Part shown: in pieces, positions 2,749 to 57,878 of the stretch
Numbering within the stretch: position 1 is the first letter of the stretch
How the letters are laid out: each line of letters begins with the position of its first letter
Source of the DNA: Minisyncoccota bacterium
GTDB lineage: Bacteria > Patescibacteriota > Minisyncoccia > Phycocordibacterales > DATDWN01
Assembly (NCBI GenBank): GCA_041674105.1
Contig: JBAYWK010000001.1
Location: 82,190-146,189, forward strand
DNA length: 64,000 bases
Direction: 5' to 3'
Position numbers and translations under genes: made by a program
Notes under the pieces: model-generated
Seen by the model: only the letters and a program-made list of their open reading frames with translations
What the model was told of the DNA's origin: nothing
Database searches by the model: none

Positions 2749-3345
2749 TTATTCCTTAGATTTAAGATATACAGTTAAATATTTTTCTTCTAAATTATTT
2801 TTTAATCTTGTTCCTAATGTATCTTTACCTGTTCTAAAGTGTTTACCGTCCTCAACATGAGCTCCACCAACAATAACAAAATATTTGCCCGGATTTTCCT
2901 GATAGTAATTATTAATATTATCAGACATATCCTCGTCCCGTGACTCACCTCTTAAAAAATAATAGCCGTGTTCAGATTTGGTTTTATACTCATCTATAGC
3001 AACCTTAGAAGAATCGATGCAAATAACCGGTTTGCCCAATTCTTTTAGCTTATCTAACATTTTCAAAATACCCCTTATATCTTTACTTTCTTTCTGTGCT
3101 CCCAAAAAATACCTTTCTAGACTTTGATCAATCTCTCCTTTTTCCATATACAAATCTACAGAAGATTGATAGCTTACAGACAATTCTAAAAATAAACCTC
3201 TTATTTGATCTGAATGTTTATCTAAAACACAAATGATTTCTTCATCATGAGTGCCGTGAAAGTTTTCAGCCAAAACAACAATATCTGCTTTTTCAAAATA
3301 ATTTTCTAAAACCTGCTCTTGTTCTATTTTTGGAATTTGTTCCAT
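2749..3345 (-). CDS. EreA/ChaN/Tiki-superfamily-like protein.
   Basis: Two GxxH-type motifs (VVLAENFHGTHDEE and VIVGGAHVEDG) are spaced as in the Tiki/TraB/ChaN fold. The assignment is tentative. Confidence 0.4.
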   Translation of the reverse strand: MEQIPKIEQEQVLENYFEKADIVVLAENFHGTHDEEIICVLDKHSDQIRGLFLELSVSYQSSVDLYMEKGEIDQSLERYFLGAQKESKDIRGILKMLDKLKELGKPVICIDSSKVAIDEYKTKSEHGYYFLRGESRDEDMSDNINNYYQENPGKYFVIVGGAHVEDGKHFRTGKDTLGTRLKNNLEEKYLTVYLKSKE

Positions 3346-3348
3346 AAA

Positions 3349-4014
3349 TTACGGTTTAGATATTTCTATAATAATTTTATTAATATCTGGGAAATACTTT
3401 TCAAATATCTCTGATACTTTTTCTGAATTTTCCGGATCTCTCTGAATCCTCTTACTTTCAGGGAAAAATTTATCGATAATTAAATCCACCAACCTTTCCT
3501 TTACCCAATGTGTTATTTTATACTCTTTTATTAGAGGCTCAATGGTTAAATGTACAATCTCATGGGCTAGAGTAATAGTAAGTACTCTTTTTTGTTCAAT
3601 ATTAAGTTGAACATTATTTGGTAACCCATAACTACCCCCTGTTCCATATTTTGTAACACATACAAAATATTTATCTTGTAGTGGAAGATTTAGTGTTTTT
3701 AAACTTTCAAAAAATTTATCTTTTATTTCATCCCACTCTTTTATTATCAAATCCACTTCTTCTCTATATTTTTCTTGATCAAATTCAGCAGAAACTGCTT
3801 CTAAAATATCTTCCTTTTTTACCTTCTCATCTTTTTCTAATCTTTCTTGTATCAATTTAGGATACTTGGGCTTATAACCATTTTCCTTATACCAATGGTA
3901 TTTTTTAAGTGTACTAAAAACCCTTTCTTTTTCATCTTCTACAGAATAATCAAAAACAACCTCTATTTTTGGTTCAGCTTCTTTGTTATCTTGATTTTCT
4001 ATTAGCTTTTCCAT
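3349..4014 (-). CDS. Hypothetical protein with an HExxH zinc-metallopeptidase-like motif.
   Basis: The ORF is 221 aa and contains TITLAHEIVHLT. No wider family was recognised. Confidence 0.35.
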   Translation of the reverse strand: MEKLIENQDNKEAEPKIEVVFDYSVEDEKERVFSTLKKYHWYKENGYKPKYPKLIQERLEKDEKVKKEDILEAVSAEFDQEKYREEVDLIIKEWDEIKDKFFESLKTLNLPLQDKYFVCVTKYGTGGSYGLPNNVQLNIEQKRVLTITLAHEIVHLTIEPLIKEYKITHWVKERLVDLIIDKFFPESKRIQRDPENSEKVSEIFEKYFPDINKIIIEISKP

Positions 4015-6953: not shown

Positions 6954-6958
6954 AACAA

Positions 6959-7237
6959 TCAATCTGTTTTTACTACATAATAAGTATACTTATCTTTCCA
7001 AATTCTAGCAGATTCTTCGACTACTGGTTTAGCCTCAGGATTTAAAGATGTGACACAATTAACCCACTCCTCCGATGTAGTAATGCCTACCACAATAGCC
7101 CTTTGATCTGGAAATACTCTCTCAAAATGATCCGTGATTCCTTTTATTACCTCCCCTACTTGATGTCTAGGATTCCAAGTTATCTGGTCTCCTGTTTCGT
7201 CTTTAGTATTCCAAGATGCAATAACCAACTGTGACAT
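6959..7237 (-). CDS. Hypothetical 92-aa protein inserted between rpsJ and rplC.
   Basis: The ORF is bracketed by two strong hairpin terminators. No family was recognised. Confidence 0.45.
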   Translation of the reverse strand: MSQLVIASWNTKDETGDQITWNPRHQVGEVIKGITDHFERVFPDQRAIVVGITTSEEWVNCVTSLNPEAKPVVEESARIWKDKYTYYVVKTD

Positions 7238-7264
7238 AAAACCTCCTCAAGAGATACTACCACC

Positions 7265-7304
7265 TACAAATACAAAAACCACCCGAAGGTGGTTTTTGTA
7301 TTTG
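7265..7304 (-). terminator. Intrinsic terminator downstream of rpsJ and repeat A1.
   Basis: acaaatacaaaaaccacccgaaggtggtttttgtatttgt has a GC stem ccacc/ggtgg followed by a T-run on the minus strand. Confidence 0.65.
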
Positions 7305-7305
7305 T

Positions 7306-7380
7306 AAGGATTTTTGTTTGAGTTCAAGGCGCCAAGTTTTGTTTTTGACCAAGGTGTATAAAAATACTCCGCGGGAGAAA
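7306..7380. repeat. Repeat family A, copy 1, lying 3' of rpsJ.
   Basis: It shares ttcaaggcNcNaagttttgttt and a 30-nt identical core gaccaaggtgtataaaaatactccgcggga with copy 2 at 15774..15868. Confidence 0.7.
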
Positions 7381-7425
7381 ACAAAACAAGCAACGCAGAA
7401 ATCGAACAAAAAGACTACAAATAAA

Positions 7426-9551: not shown

Positions 9552-12500
9552 TTAGTTTTTTAATAAATGACTTATATTTTCAAAAATATTAGTTTTTGAT
9601 GCTTTAAGTGCTCTCTCGTAAACATTATCAGAAGACCACCAAGAGCCTTCCACTCCTTCATCCAATAAAACCTGCGATCCTTTTTCTGTAATTATTCCAC
9701 TAGCAAAATGTTTGCCATTTAAATATAAATCTGTTTTACCAATTTCATTTGAGACATCTGTTACTGTTTGTATAACCCCTCCTTCAAAAGGAAGTTTGGC
9801 CGGTAAATAGCCTACATTTTTATACCCTTCTACCATCTTATCCATTGCTATATTGAATGCTTTTCTAACTTCTGTGTATACTTTACCCTCTTGGAGTTTA
9901 TCAGCTAAAGCCATAGGATATGCTCCTGGTTTAGGGTCTGAGATCTCTTCCGCTATAGCTTGATTATCATAAACTAGAACTTTTTTACCTTCTAAATCAG
10001 CCAAGCCCACAGTGTGGTTGTCTACGACAAGATTATCTAAAGAAGAAAAAGGTTTACCTCCTATTTCTATAATTTTTGTTTTAGTTTCTATATTTTCTGG
10101 AATATTTGAAATATTTTCCTGTGGAACATCTGGTATTTTGACTTTGCCAGAATCCATATCCACATCCATTGGAGCGGTCTTGCCAATGTATTCCCTTGGC
10201 ACAACTTCTCCTTCAGAATTTATTATCTTACCTTCAAATGAAGATACTTGACCTTTTTGTGAATCAAACAAAACATCTTTATTTCCGTTTAGATGCTCGT
10301 AACTTAAATTACCTTTACTATCTAAAGCCAAAGACTCCCCTTTTAGACCCGCCCCACTTAATTTGTGTTCTGGGTCATACATTCCAAACTCCTCAGCAAG
10401 TTTAGTTGATGGAGTTTCTACGAAGTGTTTTAGATTTTCTGGAACTTTGGCTACATTTCCATATTTTTCCAAAATCTTACCCTTCATTTCATCAAAAGTT
10501 TTTATAAAACCTTTTGATGAAAGCTCTACTTCAACAGTTTCTGGCTTTGCCACTTCAGAAATATTTACTTTTGGAGGTACACTCTCGGCTTGAATAGAAG
10601 GTTTTGAAGTTGGCACATTTTCTGCAGAAACTTTGGCTCCTCCCGCACTAATACTTTCAATAGAATGAAGTAAGGCTCCTGAAGCGACACTTGTTCCTAT
10701 ACCTGCACCCACCATAGCACCCGCTTTCCACAATAATTGTCTTTTCTTTTTGTCTTTTTCACTCTCATAAAAATCTCTGGCTTGTTTTTCTTTTTCAGCA
10801 AAATTATCTTCTGATATATCAGTACCATACTTATTTAAAAATCCTTCTTTTAATTTAGTATTATTTTTATCAAATTTATTTTGCAAAGCCCTACCTGCAA
10901 ATTGAGAAGTTGCTGCTCCCGCTGCTGCCCTCGCAACCCTATATCCTCCATAAGCAGCTACCCCAGCTAAAGGAAGTGCACCAAAAGCAAATGCTCCTGC
11001 TGTAACCAAAGTTGAGGATAGAGCTATTCTTGTAGCTGGATGTAATTTTTGCCATTTTTCCAGAGTTTTAGATAAAATTCCCTTCTCCAAAGGAGGCCTG
11101 CCAGATTCCATTACTTTATTGAATTTATCCATCTCTTGCTCTAAGGCTTTAACCAAATCTTCATTAAAAGAATATTCTCTTGTTTCAGCCGTAATAGCGC
11201 CAGTTAAAATAACTTCTTCTTTTTTTAAACCCTTAGCAAACAAATATCTAGATTTCTCTTTTTTTGCTTCTATATATACTCTCTCTAAACCTTTTAGTTC
11301 TTCTGGAATCTCATCTGATTTTGGCATTTGTTTTTCTACACCCAAATCAAACATTGCTTTAGCAAAAACATTTTTCTTCTGCCTGTGTTTATTCAAGAAT
11401 TCTTTCTTAGCAGAAGCATAATCCTCACGAGCTTTATCCAAGTTTATATCTATTTGTTCAGCTTTTTTAAAAAGTTCTTCAAAGTCATCTACTTCTGTTT
11501 TTTTAGAATTTTCCGGAATAAAAGGAGGAGCTATAATAGTTTCAGCTTTTATATCCAAAATTTGAGGTTCTTTTTGTGCAGGTTTTTCCTGCGGAGGTTT
11601 GGGAGATATAACCTCAGTTGGATTAACAGCCGGTATTTCATCTCTAGCACTTTTATCATTAATATCCTCTTTTGGTGTATAAAATTGGCCAACTTTATCT
11701 AAATCAATCTTTTCTTGCTCCTCCTTTGATATATCTACCACAGGGTATACTCCCCTATCATATAAAGGATCAAACTCTCTTGTACTCTCTTTTGTTTCTT
11801 CGTCTATAACAAAAGATCTTCTTGATTCTCTAGTTTCTTCATCGGGTAAGACTGGGATTTCAAATTGAGAAAGTTTGTTCAACTCTTCATTTTCTTTCAA
11901 GCCAGCAAGGTGATACATCAAATCTTTTTGATCGATATCTATTATTTTTAAATTAAAAGCATCATTTATTTCAGATCTAATCTCATTAAAAGATCTGGCA
12001 AAATCAATACCTTTATGTAGAGGAATAATACTCTCGGATTTTGGTAGACTTTTTTCAATATAATCGAAAAGATAGTTTTTTACTTCACCTAAACTCTTTT
12101 CTTTTGATTCTCTTTGATTGTTCAAAATATCAAAGGAAGGCTCTTTTTTTTCTTGCTCCTCCTTTGATATATCTACCACAGGGTATACTCCCCTATCATG
12201 TAAAGGATCAAACTCTCTTGTACTCTCTTTTGTTTCTTCGTCTATAACAAAAGATCTTCTTGATTCTCTAGTTTCTTCATCGGGTAAGACTGGGATTTCA
12301 AATTGTTGTAACTTTTCAGAATTAAACTCCTTTTTTTGTTCTGCGTATTTTTCATTAGACTCTTTTTCAATATCCTTAACTGTTTTTATAAAAGAATTAT
12401 CTAGCTCTGATTCTGACTCCACTTTTTTTACTGTGAATAAGGGTAAGGGGGAGCTCAATTCTTCAACTATTACATAATCACCTGCTATCTTTTTAACAGT

Positions 12501-13022
12501 GTAAACTTTATTGCTTACTGTCCAAACAACTTTGTCTCCTTTATTAAAATCTAATTTTTCTTCTTCAATTTTAGAAATAGGAATCTTCACCCCTTCTTCT
12601 AAAGGCAACCCCAGGATAGACATCATCTCTCTTTTTTGCTCCTTAGACACAAAGTCAGCCGAGAGGCTGTCTATAAACTTCTCTGCCCCTTCCCTATCTT
12701 TGATATACTGAGCATCAAAAACTAAATATTTTTTATAAGGATTTTCTGGCAGTTTTATTTGTAAATAATTTTTTAGTTCCTTTATAGAACCATCATTTAT
12801 CTCATTATTCTCCACTCTGGTATGCTCGGCAAGTGAGTTCATAGAAAGGTGATGAACATCTTCTTCTTCCACAACAAGTTCTATATCTGAAGGATTTTTA
12901 AATTTTGGGCCATCATACATAGTTTCTATTCTTTCAAGAGAATTCTTTTCAGAAGTTTCTTCTGGAGCGAGTTTAATATCTTCTGTTAGTTTATTATCAA
13001 ATTGTGACGAAAACCTAGGCAT
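9552..13022 (-). CDS. Giant 1156-aa hypothetical protein with charged low-complexity stretches, an internal duplicated 55-aa module and Gly/Ala-rich hydrophobic segments. It is inserted between fusA and tuf.
   Basis: A single intact ORF carries QFEIPVLPDEETRESRRSFVIDEETKESTREFDPL[H/Y]DRGVYPVVDISKEEQEK twice. Segments with GxxxG-like pattern (AGAFAFGALPLAGVAAYGG, AGAMVGAGIGTSVASGALL) may be membrane-embedded. Confidence 0.6.
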   Translation of the reverse strand: MPRFSSQFDNKLTEDIKLAPEETSEKNSLERIETMYDGPKFKNPSDIELVVEEEDVHHLSMNSLAEHTRVENNEINDGSIKELKNYLQIKLPENPYKKYLVFDAQYIKDREGAEKFIDSLSADFVSKEQKREMMSILGLPLEEGVKIPISKIEEEKLDFNKGDKVVWTVSNKVYTVKKIAGDYVIVEELSSPLPLFTVKKVESESELDNSFIKTVKDIEKESNEKYAEQKKEFNSEKLQQFEIPVLPDEETRESRRSFVIDEETKESTREFDPLHDRGVYPVVDISKEEQEKKEPSFDILNNQRESKEKSLGEVKNYLFDYIEKSLPKSESIIPLHKGIDFARSFNEIRSEINDAFNLKIIDIDQKDLMYHLAGLKENEELNKLSQFEIPVLPDEETRESRRSFVIDEETKESTREFDPLYDRGVYPVVDISKEEQEKIDLDKVGQFYTPKEDINDKSARDEIPAVNPTEVISPKPPQEKPAQKEPQILDIKAETIIAPPFIPENSKKTEVDDFEELFKKAEQIDINLDKAREDYASAKKEFLNKHRQKKNVFAKAMFDLGVEKQMPKSDEIPEELKGLERVYIEAKKEKSRYLFAKGLKKEEVILTGAITAETREYSFNEDLVKALEQEMDKFNKVMESGRPPLEKGILSKTLEKWQKLHPATRIALSSTLVTAGAFAFGALPLAGVAAYGGYRVARAAAGAATSQFAGRALQNKFDKNNTKLKEGFLNKYGTDISEDNFAEKEKQARDFYESEKDKKKRQLLWKAGAMVGAGIGTSVASGALLHSIESISAGGAKVSAENVPTSKPSIQAESVPPKVNISEVAKPETVEVELSSKGFIKTFDEMKGKILEKYGNVAKVPENLKHFVETPSTKLAEEFGMYDPEHKLSGAGLKGESLALDSKGNLSYEHLNGNKDVLFDSQKGQVSSFEGKIINSEGEVVPREYIGKTAPMDVDMDSGKVKIPDVPQENISNIPENIETKTKIIEIGGKPFSSLDNLVVDNHTVGLADLEGKKVLVYDNQAIAEEISDPKPGAYPMALADKLQEGKVYTEVRKAFNIAMDKMVEGYKNVGYLPAKLPFEGGVIQTVTDVSNEIGKTDLYLNGKHFASGIITEKGSQVLLDEGVEGSWWSSDNVYERALKASKTNIFENISHLLKN
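11712..11877. repeat. Intragenic direct repeat, copy a, about 165 bp.
   Basis: It is almost identical (1 mismatch seen) to 12150..12315 within the same ORF. Confidence 0.8.
12150..12315. repeat. Intragenic direct repeat, copy b, about 165 bp.
   Basis: See copy a at 11712..11877. Confidence 0.8.
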
Positions 13023-15773: not shown

Positions 15774-15868
15774 ATTCAAGGCACGAAGTTTTGTTTATTA
15801 GGATTTTTGAAAAATTTCTAGGCTAATATGAGCATTGTGACCAAGGTGTATAAAAATACTCCGCGGGA
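15774..15868. repeat. Repeat family A, copy 2, lying 3' of rpsG.
   Basis: The core is the same as at 7306..7380, with a 40-nt insertion between the two conserved blocks. Confidence 0.7.
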
Positions 15869-15914
15869 ATAAGCGAAGTATTCAACAAAGAAATTTTTCA
15901 AAAAGACAATAGAC

Positions 15915-17156: not shown

Positions 17157-17771
17157 TTATAGCCCTGTTCCAGTAATGAAAGAAAATAGAAAATAAACTA
17201 CAGGGATCATAAACTGCCACAGAAAAAATACAAAGAAAAGAAGAACGAAAATACCATTTCTCTCCAAAAAATTTCTTACAGAAACCATATTACGAGGAAG
17301 TAGGGAAAACAAAATTTTTGAACCATCCAAAGGAGGAATGGGGATTAGATTAAAAACAGCCAATATAAGGTTTATAAAAACAATAATAGTAGCGATAAAA
17401 ACAAAACCACTACCTAGAGAAGCCAGTATTCCAAACCTCAGGAGAAGACCAAATACTAAAGCCAGAGATATGTTTGAAAGAGGTCCAGCAAAAGCCACTA
17501 TGGCCTCTCCCCACTTCTGATTTCTTAAATTATAGGGATTGAAAGGTACAGGTTTTGCCCATCCTATTATAAAACCACCGAAAAGATAGGAAATAGTTGG
17601 TAGTATTATAGAACCAAATAAGTCCAAGTGAACTAAAGGGTTTAGAGAAAGTCTACCTTGAAACTTGGCTGTGTTGTCCCCCTGTAAATACGCAGCATAA
17701 CCATGAGAAACCTCATGAATAATAACTGAGAATATGAGTACGGCTATTTGAAATATAAATTGTGTGTCCAT
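17157..17771 (-). CDS. Site-2 protease family (peptidase M50) membrane metalloprotease.
   Basis: HEVSHGY forms the HExxH motif inside a TM helix, and NLIPIPPLDGS is the characteristic LDG motif. Confidence 0.8.
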   Translation of the reverse strand: MDTQFIFQIAVLIFSVIIHEVSHGYAAYLQGDNTAKFQGRLSLNPLVHLDLFGSIILPTISYLFGGFIIGWAKPVPFNPYNLRNQKWGEAIVAFAGPLSNISLALVFGLLLRFGILASLGSGFVFIATIIVFINLILAVFNLIPIPPLDGSKILFSLLPRNMVSVRNFLERNGIFVLLFFVFFLWQFMIPVVYFLFSFITGTGL

Positions 17772-17814
17772 ATTTTTATTAAAACACCTCTTAAAATCTC
17801 TTTCTCAGCAACAT

Positions 17815-17890
17815 AATTTTAGGGCACACCATAAGTCTTGTTAGACTTTGGCTCAATCTCGCGCCGTCGCGCTCCGAAGTCCCTAAAATT
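17815..17890. repeat. Repeat family B, copy 1, a 76-nt element with a 10-bp terminal inverted repeat.
   Basis: aattttaggg…ccctaaaatt encloses an internal hairpin aagtcttgttagactt and a GC core ctcgcgccgtcgcgctccgaag. An inverted copy lies at 24393..24468. Confidence 0.75.
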
Positions 17891-17931
17891 ATAATGAGAG
17901 AGCGGAGTTTTTTAACAAAACCACATCGAGT

Positions 17932-18020
17932 GTATATGTTTTCTGAAACATTGCGAGCGCGACGGCACGAACACGAGGAATTTTTCAGTAGAAAAATATC
18001 CGTTTTCAGAAAACATATAC
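17932..18020. repeat. 17-bp perfect inverted repeat in the rpmB 5' region that encloses a B-like GC core.
   Basis: gtatatgttttctgaaa … tttcagaaaacatatac. The 55-nt loop contains gagcgcgacggcacga, related to the family-B core. Confidence 0.6.
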
Positions 18021-18121
18021 CGAGATGGGGATTTTGTTATATTAAAAAGCTAAGACGGTTTGAAAATATAAGTACAAAATTGTTTGCTTTTTATAACACT
18101 TATGGTAACATACTTATCACT

Positions 18122-18364
18122 ATGGCAAAAACATGTCCAATAACAAATAAGGGGTCAAAAATGGGAGGTGGCTACTCGAACAGAACTCGTGCCACTCAAT
18201 TTAACCCTACAGGAATGAAAAGAAAATATCCAAATCTTCAAAAAAAGAAGATTTTTATACCTGAGCTAAACAAAAGTATCTCTCTTGAACTTTCTACAAA
18301 AGCGATCAAGACAATCCAAAAAAACGGAGCCTACGCCACACTAAAAAAAGCAAAACTAATTTAA
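18122..18364 (+). CDS. rpmB: 50S ribosomal protein L28.
   Basis: MAKTCPITNKGSKMGGGYSNRTRATQFNPTGMKRKYPNLQKKK… is L28-like. The ORF-finder ORF from 17894 fuses a non-coding leader onto it. Confidence 0.85.
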   Translation: MAKTCPITNKGSKMGGGYSNRTRATQFNPTGMKRKYPNLQKKKIFIPELNKSISLELSTKAIKTIQKNGAYATLKKAKLI

Positions 18365-24004: not shown

Positions 24005-24364
24005 ATGAAAGATTGTATATTTTGCAAAATTGTTTCAGGAGAAATTCCATCTTATAAAGTTTATGAGGATGAAAATTTTTTGGCCTTTTTAGATATTCAC
24101 CCTCAATCCCCCAGTCATGTTCAGGTCATACCAAAAGAACACTATAGGTGGGTTTGGGATGTGCCAAATGCTGGAGAATATTTTGAGGTTGTAAAAAAAA
24201 TAGCAAAGGCACAAATGAAAGCTTTTCAAACAGATTGGATACTTTCAAAAATAGTTGGTGATGAAGTGGAGCATGCCCATATCTGGGTTTTTCCAAACTC
24301 AGAAGTTTCTGGAGACAAAATGAACTTTGAAGAAAACAAAAATAAAATTATTGAGAGTTTGTAG
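24005..24364 (+). CDS. HIT-family (histidine triad) hydrolase.
   Basis: CIFCKIVSGEIPS … VEHAHIWVFP is the HxHxHxx motif. Confidence 0.8.
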   Translation: MKDCIFCKIVSGEIPSYKVYEDENFLAFLDIHPQSPSHVQVIPKEHYRWVWDVPNAGEYFEVVKKIAKAQMKAFQTDWILSKIVGDEVEHAHIWVFPNSEVSGDKMNFEENKNKIIESL

Positions 24365-24392
24365 TTATATAAAAACTTCATTGAGTCATTAC

Positions 24393-24468
24393 AATTTTGG
24401 AGACTTCGGAGCGCGACGGCGCGAGATTGAGCCAAAGTCTAGCAAGACTTATGGCGTGCTCCAAAATT
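24393..24468. repeat. Repeat family B, copy 2, inverted relative to copy 1 and lying between the convergent HIT and pgk genes.
   Basis: Its reverse complement aligns with 17815..17890 over about 76 nt. The TIR is aattttggag…ctccaaaatt, carrying compensatory substitutions relative to copy 1. Confidence 0.75.
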
Positions 24469-24495
24469 GTGATGAGGAGAAAGAAGTTTTTATGA

Positions 24496-25620
24496 CTACC
24501 TCTCCAACGCTTCCATACCCGGTAAAGTTTCATTGACTAGAAAATCAAGCATAGCTCCACCTCCGGTTGAAACAAAAGTAAATTTATCTGAAAGTTCCAA
24601 TTTATTTATAGAAGCAACAGTATCTCCTCCGCCCACTATTGTCTCCCCAGAACAATTTGAAATTATTTCTGCAAACTGTTCTGTTTTATCTGAAAAACCT
24701 ATCTCATAATTTCCAACTGGACCATTCCAAATGATAGTTTGTGCTGTAGCAATGATGTTTTTTAATTGCTCCAATGTCTCTATACCAGCATCCACTATAG
24801 TTTCATTTTTTTCTACTTCGTTTGATTTTTTAAAAGAAACTTCACCTTTTTCATTTGTAACAGTGACATCTACAGGAACAACTAGTTTCTTATTTTGTAA
24901 TTTTTCTTTTATACCAAACTCTCCTTCTGATACAAGTGATTTACCTATTTCAAAGCCCATCTCTTTATATATATTGTGAGCCAAAGCTCCACATACAAAA
25001 ACTGTATCTGCTTTTTCTAAATATTTTTCTATCAAAGGTATCTTTGTATCAAATTTTGCTCCACCTAAAATAAATACAAAGGGTTTCTTCGGATTAAATG
25101 CTTTGGATAAGTTTTCTATTTCTTGTTTTAAAAGAATTCCGCCAAAATGTGGCAAAAATTCCGGAACAGAAACAATAGATGCATGCTTTCTGTGACTGAC
25201 AGCAAAAGCATCATTTACATAAATGTCAGCCATTTGAGCAAGTTTTTTAGCAAAATCTTTATCATTTTCTTTTTCGCCAGGATTTATCCTAAGATTCTCA
25301 AAAAGAAGAACTCCACCATTTTCCATTTTTGTGATCTTTGCTATAGCTTCTGGAGTAAAATAACTTTCTGAAAAATCCAAAGGTAAAAACCCATTCAAAT
25401 ATTTCCACATCGGTAAAAGTGTTTTTGAATCTTTGCCTTCACAATGAGAAATTATTATAGTTTTTGCTTTTCTAGCTCTCAAAAAATCCAGTGTTTCTAT
25501 AACTCTTTCTAGTCTATAAGTATCTTTAACCTGCCCTTCTATAACAGGAACATTCAGATCAAGTCTTAATAAAATTATCTTTCCCTCTAAATCTTTTTCG
25601 TCTACTATGTATTTAATCAT
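24496..25620 (-). CDS. pgk: Phosphoglycerate kinase.
   Basis: Conserved throughout; the C-terminal …GGGDTVASINKLELSDKFTFVSTGGGAMLDFL is diagnostic. Confidence 0.95.
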   Translation of the reverse strand: MIKYIVDEKDLEGKIILLRLDLNVPVIEGQVKDTYRLERVIETLDFLRARKAKTIIISHCEGKDSKTLLPMWKYLNGFLPLDFSESYFTPEAIAKITKMENGGVLLFENLRINPGEKENDKDFAKKLAQMADIYVNDAFAVSHRKHASIVSVPEFLPHFGGILLKQEIENLSKAFNPKKPFVFILGGAKFDTKIPLIEKYLEKADTVFVCGALAHNIYKEMGFEIGKSLVSEGEFGIKEKLQNKKLVVPVDVTVTNEKGEVSFKKSNEVEKNETIVDAGIETLEQLKNIIATAQTIIWNGPVGNYEIGFSDKTEQFAEIISNCSGETIVGGGDTVASINKLELSDKFTFVSTGGGAMLDFLVNETLPGMEALER

Positions 25621-31734: not shown

Positions 31735-33489
31735 TTATTCTGATATAACACGCAAGACTTCTTCTATTGTTGTAACTCCTTGAACAGCTTTAAATATACC
31801 GTCCTCTAGCATTGTCAACATACCTTCTGACTCTGCCTGCTTTTGAATATCATCGGAAGTACCATTCTTTATAATTATTTCTTTTATTGCTGGAGAAACT
31901 TTTAAAACTTCATGAATTCCAATTCTACTCAAATACCATTCTTCAGCTGGGACATTTTTCTTTGGCCTCCAAAAATAAACATCTGCCCATTTATCAGATT
32001 TATTTATTATTTTTTCTTCTTTTAAGACATCTAATATTTTGTCTAGGTTAACAGATTTACCCAAAGTTTTTATTTCTGATTCTGTTAACTGGTATTTTTC
32101 TTTTTGATCAGAGAGTCTTCTTATAAGTCTCTGGGCAATAATTATATTTATTGTAGAAACAAGCAAGAAAGGCTCGACCTTCATATCCATAAGTCTTGGT
32201 ATAGCTCCAGCCGCAGAGTTTGTGTGCAGAGTTGAAAGAACTACGTGACCAGTAAGAGAAGCGTTCACAGCAAGAGAGGCTGTCTCATTATCTCGAATCT
32301 CACCGACCATAATAATATCTGGGTCTTGTCTAACTAAAGTCCTCATACCGTTAGCAAATGTAAAATTAATATCTGGTCTAACTTGAGTTTGATTTATTCT
32401 TTTCATCTGATACTCAACAGGATCCTCTATTGTAGAAATGTTTACATCTGGAGTATTTAAAATATCCAAAATAGTATATAAAGTTGTAGTTTTTCCAGAG
32501 CCAGTTGGACCTGTAGTCAAAATCATACCCGTAGTAGATTTTAGAGATTTATGTATCCTCTCCAAACCTTCACCATGAAAACCAAGCCCCTCTAAAGTAA
32601 AGCCTGACACGGTTTCCCTAAGGAGTCTCATAACAGTTTTTTCTCCATAATAAGTCGGTAGTGTAGAAACACGAAAAGAAACTTTTTCCCCATTCATATC
32701 TATTTTAAAACGACCATCTTGTGGAAGTCTTTTTTCATCCAACTTTAAACTAGATAGGACTTTTATTCTGGCTGTAATACTAGAAGAAACATTTTTGGGT
32801 AAAATCATAGCATCGTGGAGTATTCCATCTATTCTATATCTAACCAAAAGTTCATTCTCTTGTGGCTCTATATGAATATCAGACGCATCTTGTAAAATTG
32901 CGTGTTTCAAAAGAGTATCTACAATACGAACAACAGGGACATCATCTGCCCTCTTCTTGAGATCTTGTTCTGAAACATCTTCCTCGGAATTTTCATCTGG
33001 AATACTTTTTAGAGAAATAACATCCTTTTGTATCAACTCCCCAAACTCAGCTTTCAAACTTTTCTGATACTGCAAAAGAACATTCTTCATTGACTCACTA
33101 TCTGTCAGTCTGGGAAGAATTTTTAGACCAACTTTTTTCTTTACAAAATCAATAGCAGTCAAATCCTCTGTATCAAGCATAGCGACCTCTAGAGAAGAGT
33201 CTGTTTTTTTGAAAGCCACGATATTGTGATTTCTAGCAATTGGCTCAGGAATAAGAGATAAAACCTCGAAAGGAATCTTTTCTAATTTTAAATCAACAAA
33301 AGGAATACCCAAAATATAAGCTTGCATTCTCCTTAAATCATTTTCAGTAAGTTTCCCGTCATTTACCAAAAGCTTCCCAATACTCTCTCCAGAATCTTTA
33401 TGTTTTTTTTCGGCATCCAAAACATCGGCTCTTGAAACAAGGCCTGAATCTAAAATAAAATCTTTTAATTGTGATTCTTCAATGTGCAT
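31735..33489 (-). CDS. pilB: Type IV pilus assembly ATPase PilB (GspE family).
   Basis: An N-terminal GSPII_E_N domain is followed by a Walker A GPTGSGKTTTLY and a His box. Confidence 0.9.
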   Translation of the reverse strand: MHIEESQLKDFILDSGLVSRADVLDAEKKHKDSGESIGKLLVNDGKLTENDLRRMQAYILGIPFVDLKLEKIPFEVLSLIPEPIARNHNIVAFKKTDSSLEVAMLDTEDLTAIDFVKKKVGLKILPRLTDSESMKNVLLQYQKSLKAEFGELIQKDVISLKSIPDENSEEDVSEQDLKKRADDVPVVRIVDTLLKHAILQDASDIHIEPQENELLVRYRIDGILHDAMILPKNVSSSITARIKVLSSLKLDEKRLPQDGRFKIDMNGEKVSFRVSTLPTYYGEKTVMRLLRETVSGFTLEGLGFHGEGLERIHKSLKSTTGMILTTGPTGSGKTTTLYTILDILNTPDVNISTIEDPVEYQMKRINQTQVRPDINFTFANGMRTLVRQDPDIIMVGEIRDNETASLAVNASLTGHVVLSTLHTNSAAGAIPRLMDMKVEPFLLVSTINIIIAQRLIRRLSDQKEKYQLTESEIKTLGKSVNLDKILDVLKEEKIINKSDKWADVYFWRPKKNVPAEEWYLSRIGIHEVLKVSPAIKEIIIKNGTSDDIQKQAESEGMLTMLEDGIFKAVQGVTTIEEVLRVISE

Positions 33490-33644
33490 GGTGCTTTCAG
33501 ATTTTAAGTTTTTTCATCGTCCTCGATTTTTATAAAAAACTAAAATCTTATATTATGTAATCTTGTTTTTATTATATCAAAAAAACAAAAACTAAACTTA
33601 AATAATGTGTATAAATTAATAACTTTCTAAAAAAATTATGTGAT

Positions 33645-33673
33645 TTGACAAAATTGTCCTGATTTGATAATAT
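33645..33673 (+). promoter_or_regulatory. sigma70-like promoter for nusA (TTGACA-17-TAATAT).
   Basis: tgatTTGACAaaattgtcctgatttgaTAATATatac. A small hairpin plus T-run (cgcccaacggcgggctaatttttt) lies in the leader. Confidence 0.5.
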
Positions 33674-33783
33674 ATACAGGTATTTGATATGAAGTTCGCC
33701 CAACGGCGGGCTAATTTTTTACCAAAAATTAGGATTCGATAAAAATTAGAAAGCGTTAGTTAAAAGTCTGCAACAAAAATATT

Positions 33784-34932
33784 ATGTCTGATTTAAAAGT
33801 AATAAACTCTGTGTTGACCCAACTTGAAGAAGAAAGGGGCATACCACAAGAAAAAATAATAGAAGCAATAGAAATGGCTCTAGCCACTGCCTATAAAAAA
33901 GAGTATGGCAAAAAAGGTCAGATTGTTAGGGCTAAATTTGACCTAAATACAGGAAAAACTGAAATGTTTCAGGTTAAAATTGTAGTAGATGAATCTACTG
34001 TAGTAATAGACCCTGAAGATGATGTTGAAATACCGGAAGATAAAACTATCTATAACCCAGAACACCACATAATGATTGTGGATGCTAGAAGAATAAAAAA
34101 GGATGTTGAGCTAGGTGAAGAAATGATTTTTCCACTAGAACCTTATGATGATTATGGAAGAATTGCTGCTCAAACAGCAAAACAAGTAATTATGCAAAAA
34201 ATAAGAGAGGCTGAGAAAGTTTCTGTCTTAGGTGAATACGGAAAAAAAGAAGGTGAAATTGTTTCCGGAACAGTCCAAAGAATAGAAAGAGGTAATATTT
34301 TCGTTGATATGGGCCGTGCCACAGGTATACTCCCCTACGAAGAACAAATACCAGGTGAAAGATTTGGTCAAGGAGAAAGAATAAGAGCTTATCTTTATAA
34401 AGTTGAAGAAAATATAAAAGGAATATTCCTTAGACTTTCTAGATCTCACCCTAAATTCCTAGAGAAACTCTTTGAAACAGAGTCTCCTGAAATAGCCAAC
34501 GGAACTGTGGTTATAAAATCTATCGCTAGAGAAGCAGGTAGTAGAACAAAAGTAGCTGTTTACTCAGAAGACGAACATATTGATCCTGTTGGATCTATGG
34601 TTGGCCAAAGAGGAGTCAGGGTAGCTACAGTAATGAGCGAAATAGGTGGAGAAAAAATAGACATCATAGAATGGTCAGAAGATCCTAAAAAATTCATAGA
34701 AGATGCTCTTTCTCCTGCAAAAATACTATCTGTTGAACTAGATGAGGTTGAAAAACAAGCTCATATAGAGGTTTCAGAAGACCAGCAATCTTTAGCTATT
34801 GGTAAAGGAGGTCAGAATGTCCGCCTAGCAGCCAAATTAACTGGTTGGAAGATAGATATAAAATCTTTAGCGTCAGAGATAAAAGATAAAGAAGAAAAAA
34901 AAGATTATTCCACTGAAGATTCAGACGAATAA
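33784..34932 (+). CDS. nusA: Transcription termination/antitermination factor NusA.
   Basis: An N-terminal NusA domain is followed by S1 and two KH domains (…IGKGGQNVRLAAKLTGWKIDI…). Confidence 0.9.
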   Translation: MSDLKVINSVLTQLEEERGIPQEKIIEAIEMALATAYKKEYGKKGQIVRAKFDLNTGKTEMFQVKIVVDESTVVIDPEDDVEIPEDKTIYNPEHHIMIVDARRIKKDVELGEEMIFPLEPYDDYGRIAAQTAKQVIMQKIREAEKVSVLGEYGKKEGEIVSGTVQRIERGNIFVDMGRATGILPYEEQIPGERFGQGERIRAYLYKVEENIKGIFLRLSRSHPKFLEKLFETESPEIANGTVVIKSIAREAGSRTKVAVYSEDEHIDPVGSMVGQRGVRVATVMSEIGGEKIDIIEWSEDPKKFIEDALSPAKILSVELDEVEKQAHIEVSEDQQSLAIGKGGQNVRLAAKLTGWKIDIKSLASEIKDKEEKKDYSTEDSDE

Positions 34933-45377: not shown

Positions 45378-45505
45378 GAAAAACTTAACAGTTTGGATGA
45401 AGTCCTAGGCGGATAAGAAAAATAATTTGAGCCTGCCTTGGATGCGCAGGCTCAAATTATTTTTTGAAATCCAACAACGGAATTCGCCAAACTGTTAAGT
45501 TTTTA
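45378..45505. repeat. Repeat family C, copy 1, a 127-nt element with an 18-bp terminal inverted repeat and an inner 12-bp palindrome.
   Basis: gaaaaacttaacagtttgg…ccaaactgttaagttttt. The inner palindrome is atttgagcctgc-cttggat-gcaggctcaaat. The 3' edge overlaps the stop codon of the minus-strand RNHCP gene. Confidence 0.8.
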
Positions 45506-45811
45506 TTTAAAATTTTTACCATTCTCAGAACTTATCTGAACTATCATCTGAAAATTATCCTCTTTAACAGCCTTATTTGGCTTCTCTAGACCACATTTAG
45601 TGCATTTGTGTATGATTGTGTACTCTTTACCTTTTTTCTCAATTCTGATGGGTTCCATCATACCAAAACAAACAGACTCTCTGTCCCCTGGGTCAATGTC
45701 TACATGTTTAGACCAAAGACAATTTGGACAATGGTTTGTATAACCTGTACCTAAAACCTCGGTTCCGCACTTCTCGCAAACAAAATTTTCTTTTGTACGT
45801 TTGAAAGTCAT
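45503..45811 (-). CDS. RNHCP-domain zinc-ribbon protein.
   Basis: CEKCGTEV…TNHCPNCLWSKHVD…CTKCG. Confidence 0.6.
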   Translation of the reverse strand: MTFKRTKENFVCEKCGTEVLGTGYTNHCPNCLWSKHVDIDPGDRESVCFGMMEPIRIEKKGKEYTIIHKCTKCGLEKPNKAVKEDNFQMIVQISSENGKNFK

Positions 45812-47050: not shown

Positions 47051-47084
47051 AACATAATATGTTTCTGGAATTATTTGAAACTAG

Positions 47085-47157
47085 GTCGGGGTGCCGAGAA
47101 TCGAACTCGGGCCGCATGTTCCCAAAACATGAATACTACCTCTATACTACACCCCGA
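47085..47157 (-). tRNA. tRNA-Pro (anticodon UGG).
   Basis: CGGGGUGUAGUAUAGAGGUAGUAUUCAUGUUUUGGGAACAUGCGGCCCGAGUUCGAUUCUCGGCACCCCGA. The anticodon loop is UUUGGGA. Confidence 0.85.
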
Positions 47158-47185
47158 CGCAATTTCAAATAATTCCCCAAAAATG

Positions 47186-47210
47186 CATACTACCTCTATA
47201 CTACACCCCG
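47186..47210 (-). repeat. Partial duplicate of the 5' half of tRNA-Pro (acceptor 5' strand, D-arm and anticodon 5' stem-loop).
   Basis: On the minus strand the sequence is CGGGGUGUAGUAUAGAGGUAGUAUGCAUUUUUGGGG…. Confidence 0.7.
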
Positions 47211-47253
47211 AATATAACAATTAGAAGTCTACCATAAATAATATAAATAACAA

Positions 47254-54618: not shown

Positions 54619-56181
54619 ATGAGCGTCTCAAAAGTGTACAGTAGCCAGACAAGTTTCCTAGACGCTCAAATAATTGATATTGAAGTAGATCTTTCAAAAG
54701 GTCTACATTCTTTTTCTATTGTTGGCTTAGCAAATAAATCTGTAGATGAATCAAAAGACAGGGTTTCTGCTTCAATAAAAAATTCTGGCTTTAAATCTCC
54801 AAAAAATAAAAATCAAAAAATAGTAGTATCCCTAGCTCCGGCTGACATAAAAAAGGAAGGGCCTCTTTTTGACTTGCCTATAGCTATTGCTTATCTTATT
54901 GCCTCCGGAGATATTAAAGCAGATACTCAAAAAAGGCTTTTTGTAGGAGAATTGTCTTTAGATGGAAAGTTAAGAAAAATAAAAGGAGCTCTGCCCATTA
55001 CCAAGAAAGCAAAATCTTCTGGTTTTACAGAAATCTTTCTACCGAAAGAAAATGCTGATTAAGCTTCTACTATAAAAGGTATTAAAATATACGGAGCCGA
55101 TAATCTTTCAGAGGTTTTGGGGCACATAAATGAAACAAAAGATGATGCAGAAAATGAAATAATACCAAAATTTACCATAGAACCTCATATTAAAAATAAA
55201 GATTTAGAAAAAACGAGGGAAATAGATATAGATTTTTCTGACGTAAAAGGACAAGAATCTGCCAAAAGAGGACTAGAAATAGCTGCAGCTGGTGGACACA
55301 ACATAATAATGTATGGACCTCCTGGAACAGGAAAGACTATGCTTGCTCGTGCCTTTACACATCTTTTACCCCCTCTTTCTTTTGACGATATGTTGGAAGT
55401 GACTTCTATCTATTCTATAGGAGGCGAGCTTCAAGATAGCCTGGTAAAACATCCACCTTTTAGATCTCCACATCACACAGCTTCTTATGTTTCGTTGGTA
55501 GGAGGAGGGAGTAATTTGAAACCCGGAGAAGTTACATTGGCTCATAAAGGGGTGTTATTTTTAGATGAACTACCAGAATTTGATACAAAAGTTTTGGAAA
55601 CTTTAAGGCAACCTTTGGAAGATAGGTTTGTGACTATTTCAAGAGCAAAAGGAAGTGTAAAATACCCAGCAGACTTTATTTTGATTGCCACAATGAATCC
55701 TTGCTCTTGTGGAAATTATGGAATAAAAGGAAAAGAATGTACTTGCTCAGCGGTCCAATTGGAAAGATACAAAAGAAAACTCTCTGGACCTATCGTTGAT
55801 CGTATAGATATGTGGGTAGAAGTTTCCTTAATAGAACACGAAAAATTAACAGACCCTAGAAACAAACACACTGAAACAAAGATAATAAAAGATAGAGTTT
55901 TAAAAGCCAGAGAAGGACAACAAAAAAGACATAGTAAAATTGGTATAAAAAGCAGGACAAATGCTGAATTATCTTCAAAAGAGTTAATTGAGCATATAAA
56001 ACTCTCAGATAATATAAAAAATATTTTAAATGAATCAGCTAAAAAACTAGACCTGTCTGCCAGGGTCTACCATCGCATAATAAAAATAGCTAGAACAATA
56101 GCCGACTTGGACGAAAGCGACGAAGTAAAAGAAAGTCATATTTTAGAAGCTATACAATACAGACCAAAGAAGTATTTGTAG
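54619..56181 (+). pseudogene. comM: Mg-chelatase-like AAA+ protein YifB/ComM interrupted by a single in-frame TAA at 55060-55062.
   Basis: The N-terminal Lon-like segment (54619..55062) and the AAA+ segment (55117..56181) are in the same frame. Translating through the TAA gives …LPKENAD*ASTIKGIKIYGADNLSEVLGHINE…, which is continuous with the ComM family. Confidence 0.7.
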
Positions 56182-56735: not shown

Positions 56736-56862
56736 GAAAAACTTAACAATTTGGATGAAGTCCTAGGCGGATAAGAAAAATGATTTGAGCCTGCCTTGGA
56801 TGCGCAGGTGAAAATTATTTTTTGAAATCCAACAACGGAATTCGCCAAACTGTTAAGTTTTT
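56736..56862. repeat. Repeat family C, copy 2.
   Basis: About 93% identical to 45378..45505. The 3' edge again overlaps the stop codon of a minus-strand gene, the M23 peptidase. Confidence 0.8.
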
Positions 56863-56864
56863 AT

Positions 56865-57878
56865 TTAGAAGGGGTTTTTTCCTCCTCTAACCTCAAAGTG
56901 CAAATGTATTCCAGTAGATTTTCCTGTACTACCCATATATCCAATAGTATCACCTTGGCTTACTTTTTGACCAACGCTTATTGCTGTATTATTTAAGTGG
57001 CCGTACAAAGTCTGAGTTCCATTTGAATGCTTAATAACGATATAAGAACCATAACCCCCATTCCATCCTGAGTTTTTTGAAATAATGACTTCTCCGTCTG
57101 CCGCGGCCATAATCTTGGCATTCAAATAAGAAGCTAGATCTACTCCATTATGACCATGTATTCCCTGAGTCCTTACTCCTCCAACTATAGGTCTTATAAA
57201 ATAACCTGATACAGAAACACTCCCAGATGAAGTTTTAGTATAAAAGCTTGAAGAAGATGTTGTGGTTTTAGTACTTACAGCCAATATTTCACCATCTGGT
57301 ATAAAAATCTTATCCCCAATAGCTATTTTTGAATCTTTTGCTAGATTATTATATTGAAGTATTTCTTCTAGATCACCACTATATTTTTTGGCAATACCTT
57401 GCAAAGTGTCTCCGGACTTAACGGTATGATTTATACCTGATATAGGTAGTATAACAAGCTCTTGTCCAGGGGATATTTGGGTTCCCTTAAGATCGTTTGC
57501 CCAAATAATTGTATTCGTATTTACATTAAAAATCTTAGCTATATCTGAAAGCTTATCTCCTTCACGAACAACATAAACACTAATCTGTCCGTTGTTATAA
57601 ACATATTCTTTACTATCGTAGGGTGTATGAGCTTCTAAAAAAAGAGATGACTCATCTATTATAGAAACGGTTTCTGAAGTAGAAGAAGCTAAAGGTGCTA
57701 CCGCTGCCTGCAAAAGAGCCATATTTTGAGAGTTTGGGTTATTTGTTTCCAAGGCAGAAACATTTGAAGAAAATAAATCTTTTACTACAGAAAAAAAACC
57801 CGCTTCCACAGAAAGAGGTACTATTGCGGATAAGGCAAATATAGAGAAAAACGCAAATCGTGCCTTTATGTTCACCAA
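56865..57878 (-). CDS. Peptidase M23 family protein with two LysM domains.
   Basis: The LysM domains are YVVREGDKLSDIAKIF and HTVKSGDTLQGIAKKY. The M23 motifs are HNGVDLA and GSTGKSTGIHLHFEV. It has a TTG or GTG start. Confidence 0.8.
   Translation of the reverse strand: MVNIKARFAFFSIFALSAIVPLSVEAGFFSVVKDLFSSNVSALETNNPNSQNMALLQAAVAPLASSTSETVSIIDESSLFLEAHTPYDSKEYVYNNGQISVYVVREGDKLSDIAKIFNVNTNTIIWANDLKGTQISPGQELVILPISGINHTVKSGDTLQGIAKKYSGDLEEILQYNNLAKDSKIAIGDKIFIPDGEILAVSTKTTTSSSSFYTKTSSGSVSVSGYFIRPIVGGVRTQGIHGHNGVDLASYLNAKIMAAADGEVIISKNSGWNGGYGSYIVIKHSNGTQTLYGHLNNTAISVGQKVSQGDTIGYMGSTGKSTGIHLHFEVRGGKNPF

Follow-up and report, generated by a model that had tools for sequence, protein, structure and literature searches.

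A palindromic element family with a conserved three-way-junction tip in Patescibacteria, represented by three copies in a 64-kb window

Rickettsia palindromic elements (RPE), which Ogata and colleagues are said to have reported in 2000, are the described system that the repeats treated here resemble most. The ERIC/IRU elements of enterobacteria are ~127-nt imperfect palindromes that occur only in transcribed intergenic regions and are conserved over their full length. Yeast mitochondria have GC clusters and 'byp' elements, which are GC-rich palindromic mobile modules in AT-rich genomes. The Patescibacteria comprise a large share of bacterial diversity, have tiny genomes and are commonly regarded as having little mobile DNA. 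A stretch of 64,000 nucleotides of the patescibacterial contig JBAYWK010000001.1, called the window in the following, is AT-rich (~31-36% GC) and contains three copies, named A, B and C, of a palindromic element with a folded, conserved tip. The three copies are members of a widespread Patescibacteria family of palindromic elements, which are probably non-autonomous, mobile or selfish and operate at the DNA level via a folded strand.

A covariance model built on 92 copies of the family found exactly three members in the window. The next-best match is an ordinary hairpin at 21 bits, so the count ends with B (84.1 bits, 24387-24482), C (81.8 bits) and A (77.6 bits, 17801-17896). The copies and their parts are given below, with the kind of evidence in brackets.

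17793-17912, + strand: copy A, full palindromic element, long form, subtype 2 (inverted repeat I1 arm, alignment, fold, model)
17815-17890, + strand: 76-nt unit inside A, in which an inner stem of 10 bp (aattttaggg/ccctaaaatt) surrounds the three-way-junction core (sequence)
17829-17851, + strand: P2, the hairpin of A that has a bulged U, CCA[U]AAGUCU-UGUU-AGACUUUGG (fold prediction, family covariation)
17861-17872, + strand: P3 mini-hairpin of A, GCGC-CGUC-GCGC, within the conserved core (pattern search, fold)
24371-24490, - strand: copy B, full palindromic element, long form, subtype 2 (other I1 arm, fold, model)
24393-24468, - strand: inner 76-nt unit of B (sequence and A/B alignment)
24409-24425, - strand: core 17-mer of B, exact match (pattern search)
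24411-24422, - strand: P3 of B (sequence, fold)
24431-24455, - strand: P2 of B (sequence, fold)
17914-18038, - strand: copy C, full element, type 1 (the commonest subtype), upstream of rpmB and directly abutting A (model)
17932-17948 and 18004-18020: the two arms of the perfect 17-bp inner stem of C (sequence, fold)
17955-17971, - strand: core 17-mer of C, TTCGTGCCGTCGCGCTC, two mismatches (pattern search)

The core CTCGCGCCGTCGCGCTC is exact at 17858-17874 (+) and 24409-24425 (-) and has two mismatches at 17955-17971 (-); no match is expected by chance in the window (100 shuffles). A and B form a 120-nt inverted repeat in the repeat finder with 84% complementarity, and the mean column identity of their alignment is 84%. 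Each folds as one long branched hairpin, with fold z-scores of -5.4 (+) and -4.6 (-) for A and of -7.2 and -7.8 on the two strands of B. Six positions differ between A and B inside the 76 nt, and four of these make up two compensated pairs, A-T to G-C and G-C to A-T (AGGG/CCCT versus GGAG/CTCC). A third compensated pair, T-A to C-G, lies 2 nt beyond the unit. An earlier note on this DNA, made from the letters alone, had reported the 76-nt copies at 17815-17890 and 24393-24468 (reverse) with their shared core, internal hairpin and paired substitutions in the terminal stem, and all of these were found again. The 76-nt unit is real, but it covers no more than the inside of a longer hairpin, the similarity reaching 120 nt. 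The 17-bp inverted repeat at 17932-18020, which the note took for a separate structure, is in fact the inner stem of C, a third full member at 81.8 bits. The GC core enclosed by this repeat is similar, as had been said, but calling it related understated the case, C being a true member. As in A and B, the long stem of C is followed by an AU-rich hairpin and then by the GC core. A and B are probably paralogues of recent origin, copied as complete hairpins of 120 nt, and C is probably an independent insertion of another subtype.

The architecture is the same throughout the family: a long, variable stem ends in a three-way junction. The element has a median length of 112 nt (range ~64-166), and the arms comprise 12-55 bp. 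The sense strand is defined as the strand carrying CTCGCGCC. Its consensus begins with the variable 5' arm, followed by CAC, the P2 hairpin GGA[U]AUUUUUC-UGCU-GAAAAAUUCC and the joining strand UCGUGCU. The 3' part consists of P3 (GCGC-CGUC-GCGC), the joining strand CUCCSAAG, one nucleotide and the 3' arm, which is complementary to the 5' arm. In the junction, the AU-rich hairpin has one bulged base and a YUGCUR loop, and the GC mini-hairpin has 4-5 bp and the loop CGUC. The joining strands CAC, CUCGUGCU or CUCAAUCU, and CUCCSAAG are conserved. Type 2, which includes A and B, has the P2 hairpin RCCA[U]AAGUCU-UGYU-AGACUUUGGC and the joining strand UCAAUCU and is also present at the loci L130, L203 and L244. 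The long form, which has both an internal loop and an outer stem, is found in a minority of copies, among them A, B and C. CTC[GAC] on both arms, often in the long form, occurs in 20 of the 92 copies and the complementary motif in 4.

The arms differ almost wholly between copies, even within one genome. Many are perfect duplexes of 20-31 bp with a sequence unique to each copy, and only ~8-10 bp beside the core are semi-conserved (TTTTnnAGnG / CnCTnnAAAA). Pairing is nevertheless maintained. Standard pairs make up 87% of the pair cells in the 92 copies versus 65% in shuffles, and 572 cells are changed on both sides versus 180 in shuffled alignments; neither observed value was reached in any of 500 shuffles. 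When the partners are slid by one to three columns, pairing falls to 41-55%. Changes on both sides occur in all 14 pairs of P1 and all 10 pairs of P2. The P2 cells are paired to 93% across the family, and some versions of P2 are fully GC-rich. P3 is invariant in the exact-20-mer set and covaries in the copies found by the model (GGCC/GGCC, GGCU/AGCC, GCAC/GUGC, GGCGC/GCGCC), so all three helices covary. This strong stem covariation agrees with the initial proposal that the stem and not the sequence is maintained. Taking the paired changes as a sign of stem selection is justified only in part: the stems do covary, but templated palindrome correction during replication can also create such pairs.

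The two strands are not equivalent. Mismatches in the arms of the sense strand comprise 174 pyrimidine-pyrimidine, 85 A.C, 24 G.U and 21 purine-purine pairs. By this asymmetry the complementary strand carries G.U wobbles and tandem G.A pairs (CGAG/CGAG). Under RNA parameters the complementary strand was the more stable one in 83 of 91 copies, and under DNA parameters in 85 of 91; with the arms folded alone, it was still better in 71-74 of ~90 copies. Because the copies in this comparison partly depend on one another, the p-values exaggerate the effect, but its direction is clear.

The spread of the family was searched with an exact 20-mer from the core, TCGYGCCGTCGCGCTCSSAA, in one genome per bacterial or archaeal species. 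These species-representative genomes have at least 119 loci, and 123 matches were listed. About 100 of the listed matches are in low-GC Patescibacteria, all with the entire architecture; 22 come from unrelated bacteria, where they sit in GC-rich sequence without the structure around them. The lineages among the matches listed are Nomura-, Taylor-, Yonath-, Niyogi-, Colwell-, Adler-, Yanofsky- and Moranbacteria, Minisyncoccia and RAAC4_OD1_1, which all fall within the Parcubacteria/Paceibacteria part of the Patescibacteria. Several genomes have 3-6 exact-core copies among the matches listed. The model search of the same loci, 8 kb each, added 22 copies with an imperfect core, i.e. about one extra copy per 30 kb and at most three within 8 kb, and family members scored 42-103 bits. 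From the one extra copy per 30 kb, the copy number is estimated at a few tens per genome. The earlier note had considered that only two copies might exist, with no compensation elsewhere; the result is a large family with covarying stems in other genomes. Taxonomy labels of metagenome-assembled genomes (MAGs) are imperfect, and many 'Saccharibacteria' labels look unreliable. The contig L244 (CAZKCA010000005.1), labelled uncultured Candidatus Saccharibacteria, is syntenic with the window at 80% PGK identity, and the organism of the window is labelled Paceibacterota; Candidatus Paceibacterota is the label of a 245-kb contig with a PGK protein 100% identical to that of the window. Many MAGs labelled 'uncultured Candidatus Saccharibacteria' look mislabelled.

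A chance GC-rich motif was rejected as the origin of the matches. The bare 16-mer is abundant in GC-rich viral contigs, but those loci fail the model: 100 viral loci (0.92 Mb) with a chance 16-mer gave a single weak match of 30 bits. The 24-mer typical of type 1 was absent from 2.9 million viral contigs. Rfam gave no match to the element in the window at the gathering threshold, no relevant match around A and C at E<=10 and no match at E<=1 at eight loci with copies of the commonest subtype, both strands being covered overall. A tRNA or tmRNA origin was dismissed, as ARAGORN and Rfam place the only tRNAs of the window at 43.8-48.5 kb. Guide-like spacers around a scaffold, as in TIGR arrays, were rejected too; the copies are dispersed singly, and their arms pair with each other. 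Searches of the full-text literature, with incomplete coverage, gave nothing relevant to the family, which is apparently hitherto undescribed.

The genes beside the three copies in the window are:

17157-17771, - strand: M50 peptidase
18122-18364, + strand: rpmB
24005-24364, + strand: HIT-family protein
24496-25620, - strand: pgk

A lies between the divergent genes for the M50 peptidase and rpmB, and B occupies the whole spacer between the convergent HIT and pgk genes. An open reading frame (ORF) in the rpmB frame, 17894-18364, runs through copy C and would have 156 aa versus 80. In L244, rpmB (17600-17935) is called with 111 aa, likewise by reading through an element. A promoter-like TTAAAA-16 nt-TATAAT at 17888-17915 (-) has its -10 box in an arm of A and points to the M50 peptidase gene; in B, the corresponding sequence is TACAAT.

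Orientation relative to neighbouring genes is unbiased across the 92 copies. Between co-directional genes, 22 copies have the same orientation as the genes and 18 the opposite one. A further 13 copies are located between convergent genes and 11 between divergent genes, the latter being 11 of the 64 intergenic copies and including A and C. Within ORFs, 9 copies are sense and ~12-15 antisense, so that transcribed contexts overall hold 31 sense and ~30 antisense copies. A tie to the replication strand was also discarded, the 54 versus 38 copies relative to local GC skew not being significant. The spacers are mostly tightly filled, with 0-30 nt to the neighbouring genes, and many intergenic copies have an A-run on one side and a T-run on the other. 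Some copies also adjoin RNA genes: a copy at 6825-6920 of L195 is ~35 nt from the RNase P RNA gene (6955-7309), and one at 3173-3268 of L129 is ~27 nt from a tRNA gene (3295-3366).

About 20% of the copies reside in long ORFs, which stay open and in frame, with no stop codon across the entire element. The hosts, all essential or housekeeping genes, are:

PheT: in-ORF insertion at the same site in four genomes
TsaD: in-ORF insertion at the same site in four genomes
Dus: in-ORF insertion at the same site in two genomes, with different subtypes and reading frames
GlmM, PcrA/UvrD, an AddA-like helicase, IscS, MPG and a MutY-like glycosylase: other in-ORF hosts

The core can be read without a stop in five of its six frames, and the frame used varies from one insertion to another; the encoded peptide is therefore not the conserved feature. 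Ten tightly flanked intergenic copies part different complete genes, e.g., RecR|GrpE, GreA|LysS, Rpe|Fba and RecJ|RNase H. An intron-like, split-gene or ribosome-bypass element was rejected on these grounds, as intergenic copies separate complete genes and in-ORF copies are open, and read-through is a simpler account than bypass. If in-ORF copies are indeed read through, they would give peptides such as GSATARARGIFQQK and HGYFSAEK.

These placements bear on a role as functional cis-acting mRNA structure, which could stabilise 3' ends, be processed by RNase III or RNase Y or terminate transcription in both directions, with the junction bound by a conserved RNA-binding protein. Such a role would explain the three covarying helices with conserved loops and junction strands, and the strand that is systematically more stable and has G.U and tandem G.A pairs (CGAG/CGAG). 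Also in its favour are the many intergenic copies with A-run/T-run flanks 0-30 nt from gene ends and the filling of a convergent-gene spacer by B. It is the main rival reading but a doubtful one, as the copies have no preferred orientation relative to transcription (31 sense versus ~30 antisense). Eleven copies, A and C among them, are found between divergent genes, and a terminator or processing site within TsaD, PheT or Dus would be harmful. A simple terminator scan had no hit at the window loci, and neither strand matched Rfam. The earlier statement that the repeat is not simply a terminator is borne out by the same scan, with no site at either locus, and by copies in every gene arrangement and inside ORFs.

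The two spacers of the window were compared in four syntenic contigs with 80-92% PGK identity, which were searched with the covariance model. The contents of the spacers are:

Window: B in the pgk-HIT spacer; A and C in the rpmB-M50 spacer
L242 (92% PGK identity): no model-recognised copy in the pgk-HIT spacer, which has a C-type arm remnant and a diverged copy with an expanded P3; rpmB-M50 spacer of 137 nt without copy
L244 (80% PGK identity): a different palindromic element in the pgk-HIT spacer; one copy in the rpmB-M50 spacer, at another position and in another orientation
L245 (80% PGK identity): two copies in the pgk-HIT spacer after pgk, one of them of the C type; the contig stops before the rpmB-M50 spacer

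Syntenic relatives have 0, 1 or 2 copies at pgk-HIT and 0, 1 or 2 at rpmB-M50, which shows turnover of the element. A near-identical C unit, arms included, is located beside unrelated genes in L161 and carries a 76-nt nested insert. The recJ-rnhA spacer holds a copy in L237 and is only 17 nt long in the window. Nested inserts of ~76-90 nt were observed in L161 (3020-3100), in L131 (-), where ~80 nt lie between P2 and P3, in L224 and in L149 (3792-3913). Those of L161 and L131 have CCTTACAGGNNCAGTACAC in common. Such nesting hints at another small mobile module, with the element as its target.

The TsaD insertion amounts to 22-24 aa in an alignment with homologues that lack it. Most Parcubacteria homologues of TsaD have the insertion, and the core peptide GSATARARGIFQQKNIR is intact, decayed or missing. 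One close pair of TsaD genes has a length difference of 66 nt at the DNA level. Outer arms and TCCGT, a leftover of the core, persist in the shorter allele, which falls within a group of relatives that carry the insertion; a deletion is thus its probable origin. The idea that the arms are an inverted duplication of target DNA, drawn from these 66 nt, was given up as not demonstrable with an 'empty' allele that is likely a deletion. In the PheT and TsaD insertions shared between genomes, the 56-nt core is 95-100% identical, the flanking coding DNA 55-78% and the arms 27-95%, and the arms still pair. The gathering of copies by an exact 20-mer accounts for 20 of the 56 core positions, but not for the others. 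Something keeps the core constant in place, be it selection, conversion from other copies or repeated re-insertion. The constancy is not universal, as there are decayed TsaD lineages and decayed or expanded cores in L242 versus L245.

A core more conserved than the essential coding sequence around it would suit a DNA site used by the host. Such a site, possibly a domesticated mobile element, would be bound at the folded or duplex core by a conserved Patescibacteria protein and serve replication priming, chromosome organisation, recombination or DNA uptake. Its presence across many candidate phyla of Parcubacteria, its independence of transcription orientation and the 2.9 million viral contigs without the type 1 24-mer are consistent with this role. 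The role is unlikely, as presence and absence vary between close relatives, and some shared cores are decayed or expanded (TsaD variants, L242 versus L245). Orientation is not significantly linked to GC skew (54 versus 38), and the 64 kb have only three copies, irregularly spaced, two of them adjacent.

Very improbable is an independently transcribed small RNA gene in several paralogous copies. The conservation pattern resembles that of a structured RNA, and a perfect TATAAT with TTAAAA 16 nt upstream is present in an arm of A on the better-folding strand. Promoter-like matches are, however, common in AT-rich DNA, with 5 found versus 2.2 expected. The arms are copy-specific and hence include no conserved promoter or terminator, ~20% of the copies are within ORFs, and Rfam has no match. 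An rpmB-specific regulatory leader for ribosomal-protein autoregulation with an unrelated hairpin at pgk would fit A and C in the 350-nt spacer upstream of rpmB but was rejected as practically untenable, since the synteny comparison contradicts it: the closest relative L242 has a 137-nt rpmB-M50 spacer without copy, L244 has a single copy at a different position and orientation, and the element is present at ~100 unrelated loci.

A non-autonomous mobile or selfish DNA element thus remains the favoured explanation. Among the classes named at the outset, i.e., a MITE (a miniature transposable element with inverted repeats), a repetitive extragenic palindromic (REP)-like element or a small structured RNA, a mobile or REP-like DNA element is favoured and a strand-specific small RNA less so, because orientation relative to transcription is random. 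Each element is one long hairpin with a conserved tip and with arms of almost any sequence, provided that they pair. It would be propagated and kept intact via a folded single-stranded form. The likeliest folding strand is predicted to be 5'-CUUGGGAGCGCGACGGCGCGAGCACGAGG...CCGUGC-3', which folds better in ~80-90% of the copies. A putative trans-acting protein conserved in these bacteria may recognise the folded form. Arm complementarity could be kept through hairpin selection, intrastrand templated correction or both. As A and B indicate, the whole 120-nt hairpin including the outer arms seems able to move to a new locus. The arms may also be rebuilt or corrected, e.g., by intrastrand template switching, as suggested by the unique perfect arms of many copies; the paired substitutions need not reflect RNA selection for this reason.

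Several observations weigh against a mobile or selfish element. The combination of a conserved junction of three helices, covarying stems and conserved loops is the textbook mark of a functional structured RNA. Dead copies of a selfish element would not be expected to keep the core conserved in place within essential genes. The copies were first gathered by an exact 20-mer, which inflates the core conservation. The sole 'empty' TsaD site is probably a secondary deletion and not a clean pre-insertion site. Conserved terminal inverted repeats were not found across the copies. The flanking 5-mer direct repeats numbered 12 versus 6.0 +/- 2.2 in shuffled sequences, a weak excess consisting mostly of CTCG, and no copy had TA on both sides. 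The target-site duplication that the earlier note had suggested looking for was not found as a general feature. No transposase, neither HUH nor DDE, and no other candidate for a trans-acting gene was present among the 40 of 66 predicted window ORFs that were scanned; one Xer-like tyrosine recombinase was encoded there, among ordinary housekeeping genes.

A conserved tip with freely varying arms is the reverse of the usual MITE layout and points to a putative structure-recognising factor. Tentatively, the three-way junction might be the ligand of a Parcubacteria-wide protein, and the family a new structure-specific element; alternatively, it might be a domesticated single-stranded DNA or RNA signal. 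A structure-specific element of this kind would be mobile as an entire hairpin or by entering the tips of hairpins, would have neither terminal repeats nor target duplications, and would be actively kept intact by selection or conversion even within essential genes.

Other repeats and features were observed in the window and in its relatives. A 135-nt palindromic repeat has two copies with 96% identity (45378-45512 and 56736-56870) and the outer arms AAAAACTTAACAGTTTGG / CCAAACTGTTAAGTTTTT. Its inner hairpin loop GCATCCAAG resembles the junction minus the core, and the model matched it weakly at 21 bits. It could be a palindromic family of its own or a relative that lacks the core. In L244 (11126-11290) and L242 (8530-8580), the spacers compared above also contain palindromic elements of other kinds, whose centres are unrelated, one of them with arms ...CATCGTCCTCGATTTTTATAAAAC...; more than one family of hairpin repeats, probably several, seems to be present in these genomes. 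A 158-nt direct repeat with 99% identity (11710-11867 and 12148-12305, 438 nt apart) is inside the ORF 9552-13022. A 73-nt repeat with 79% identity, TTTTGACCAAGGTGTATAAAAATACTCCGCGGGA..., is present at two intergenic sites of the ribosomal-gene region (7343-7415 and 15835-15907) and may be a common promoter or leader. The tRNA-Pro at 47084-47156 (region 47059-47211) has 35-nt inverted-repeat flanks followed by a 39-nt duplicate of its 5' part with 92% identity, which looks like the scar of an old integration. The gene for ComM/YifB (Mg-chelatase-like) appears to be split into a ChlI/Lon-like N-terminal part (54619-55062) and an AAA+ part (55117-56181), 54 nt apart; a frameshift, a sequencing error or a disruption may be the cause. 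Around 32000-34000, the cumulative GC skew has its minimum and gene orientation switches, which may mark a replication origin.

With an estimated tens of copies per genome, the family runs counter to the picture of Patescibacteria as poor in mobile DNA. It adds 20-40 aa to essential enzymes, e.g., TsaD, PheT and Dus, with a core more constant than those genes. Such lineage-specific protein insertions could be mistaken for functional domains. The element also inflates or splits gene calls, as for rpmB with 111 or 156 aa instead of 80. For the Parcubacteria/Paceibacteria part of the Patescibacteria, it is a sequence marker.

Compared with described systems, the element shares with bacterial MITEs (e.g., Correia/NEMIS) that it is small, non-coding, multi-copy and palindromic and that its presence varies between relatives. 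MITEs differ by conserved terminal inverted repeats that match a parent insertion sequence and by a defined target-site duplication, neither of which was found here. REP, BIME and REPIN-RAYT (Y1 HUH) systems are likewise short hairpin repeats that are kept long-term. A bulged stem base and strand-specific folding are shared with REP and with the ends of IS200/IS605, and REPs are thought to be recognised as single-stranded hairpins. In contrast, REPs have 20-40 nt, are species-specific and extragenic and have a conserved GTAG 5' of the stem; here the length is 64-166 nt, the alignment has no GTAG, ~20% of the copies are in ORFs, and the tip is conserved instead of the foot. No RAYT (Y1 transposase) was detected among the 40 of 66 predicted window ORFs that were scanned. 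Like the GC clusters and byp elements of yeast, the family also lands in coding regions, but the ribosome skips byp, whereas the in-ORF copies here keep the frame open. ERIC/IRU elements have in common with it the nucleotide-level conservation across genera, the occurrence in both orientations, the lack of a known transposase and ~70-nt internal inserts in some copies (compare L131, L161 and L224). Unlike them, this family is also found in ORFs and has variable arms.

The likeness to RPE, by description of both, is the closest. In both cases, host-dependent bacteria with small, AT-rich genomes carry palindromes ~100-150 nt long, which occur in intergenic regions and in frame in essential protein genes, where they are read through as an extra peptide. 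Both are without known transposase and have old, decaying copies common to several species. The lineages are unrelated, as the sequences probably are, and RPE are similar over their full length, whereas here the tip alone is conserved and the arms are nearly free. The core of shared copies stays 95-100% identical here, which is a further difference. By this analogy, the family is best described as an RPE analogue that appears to work most like RPE and, with Patescibacteria as hosts, as a member neither of RPE nor of another named family.

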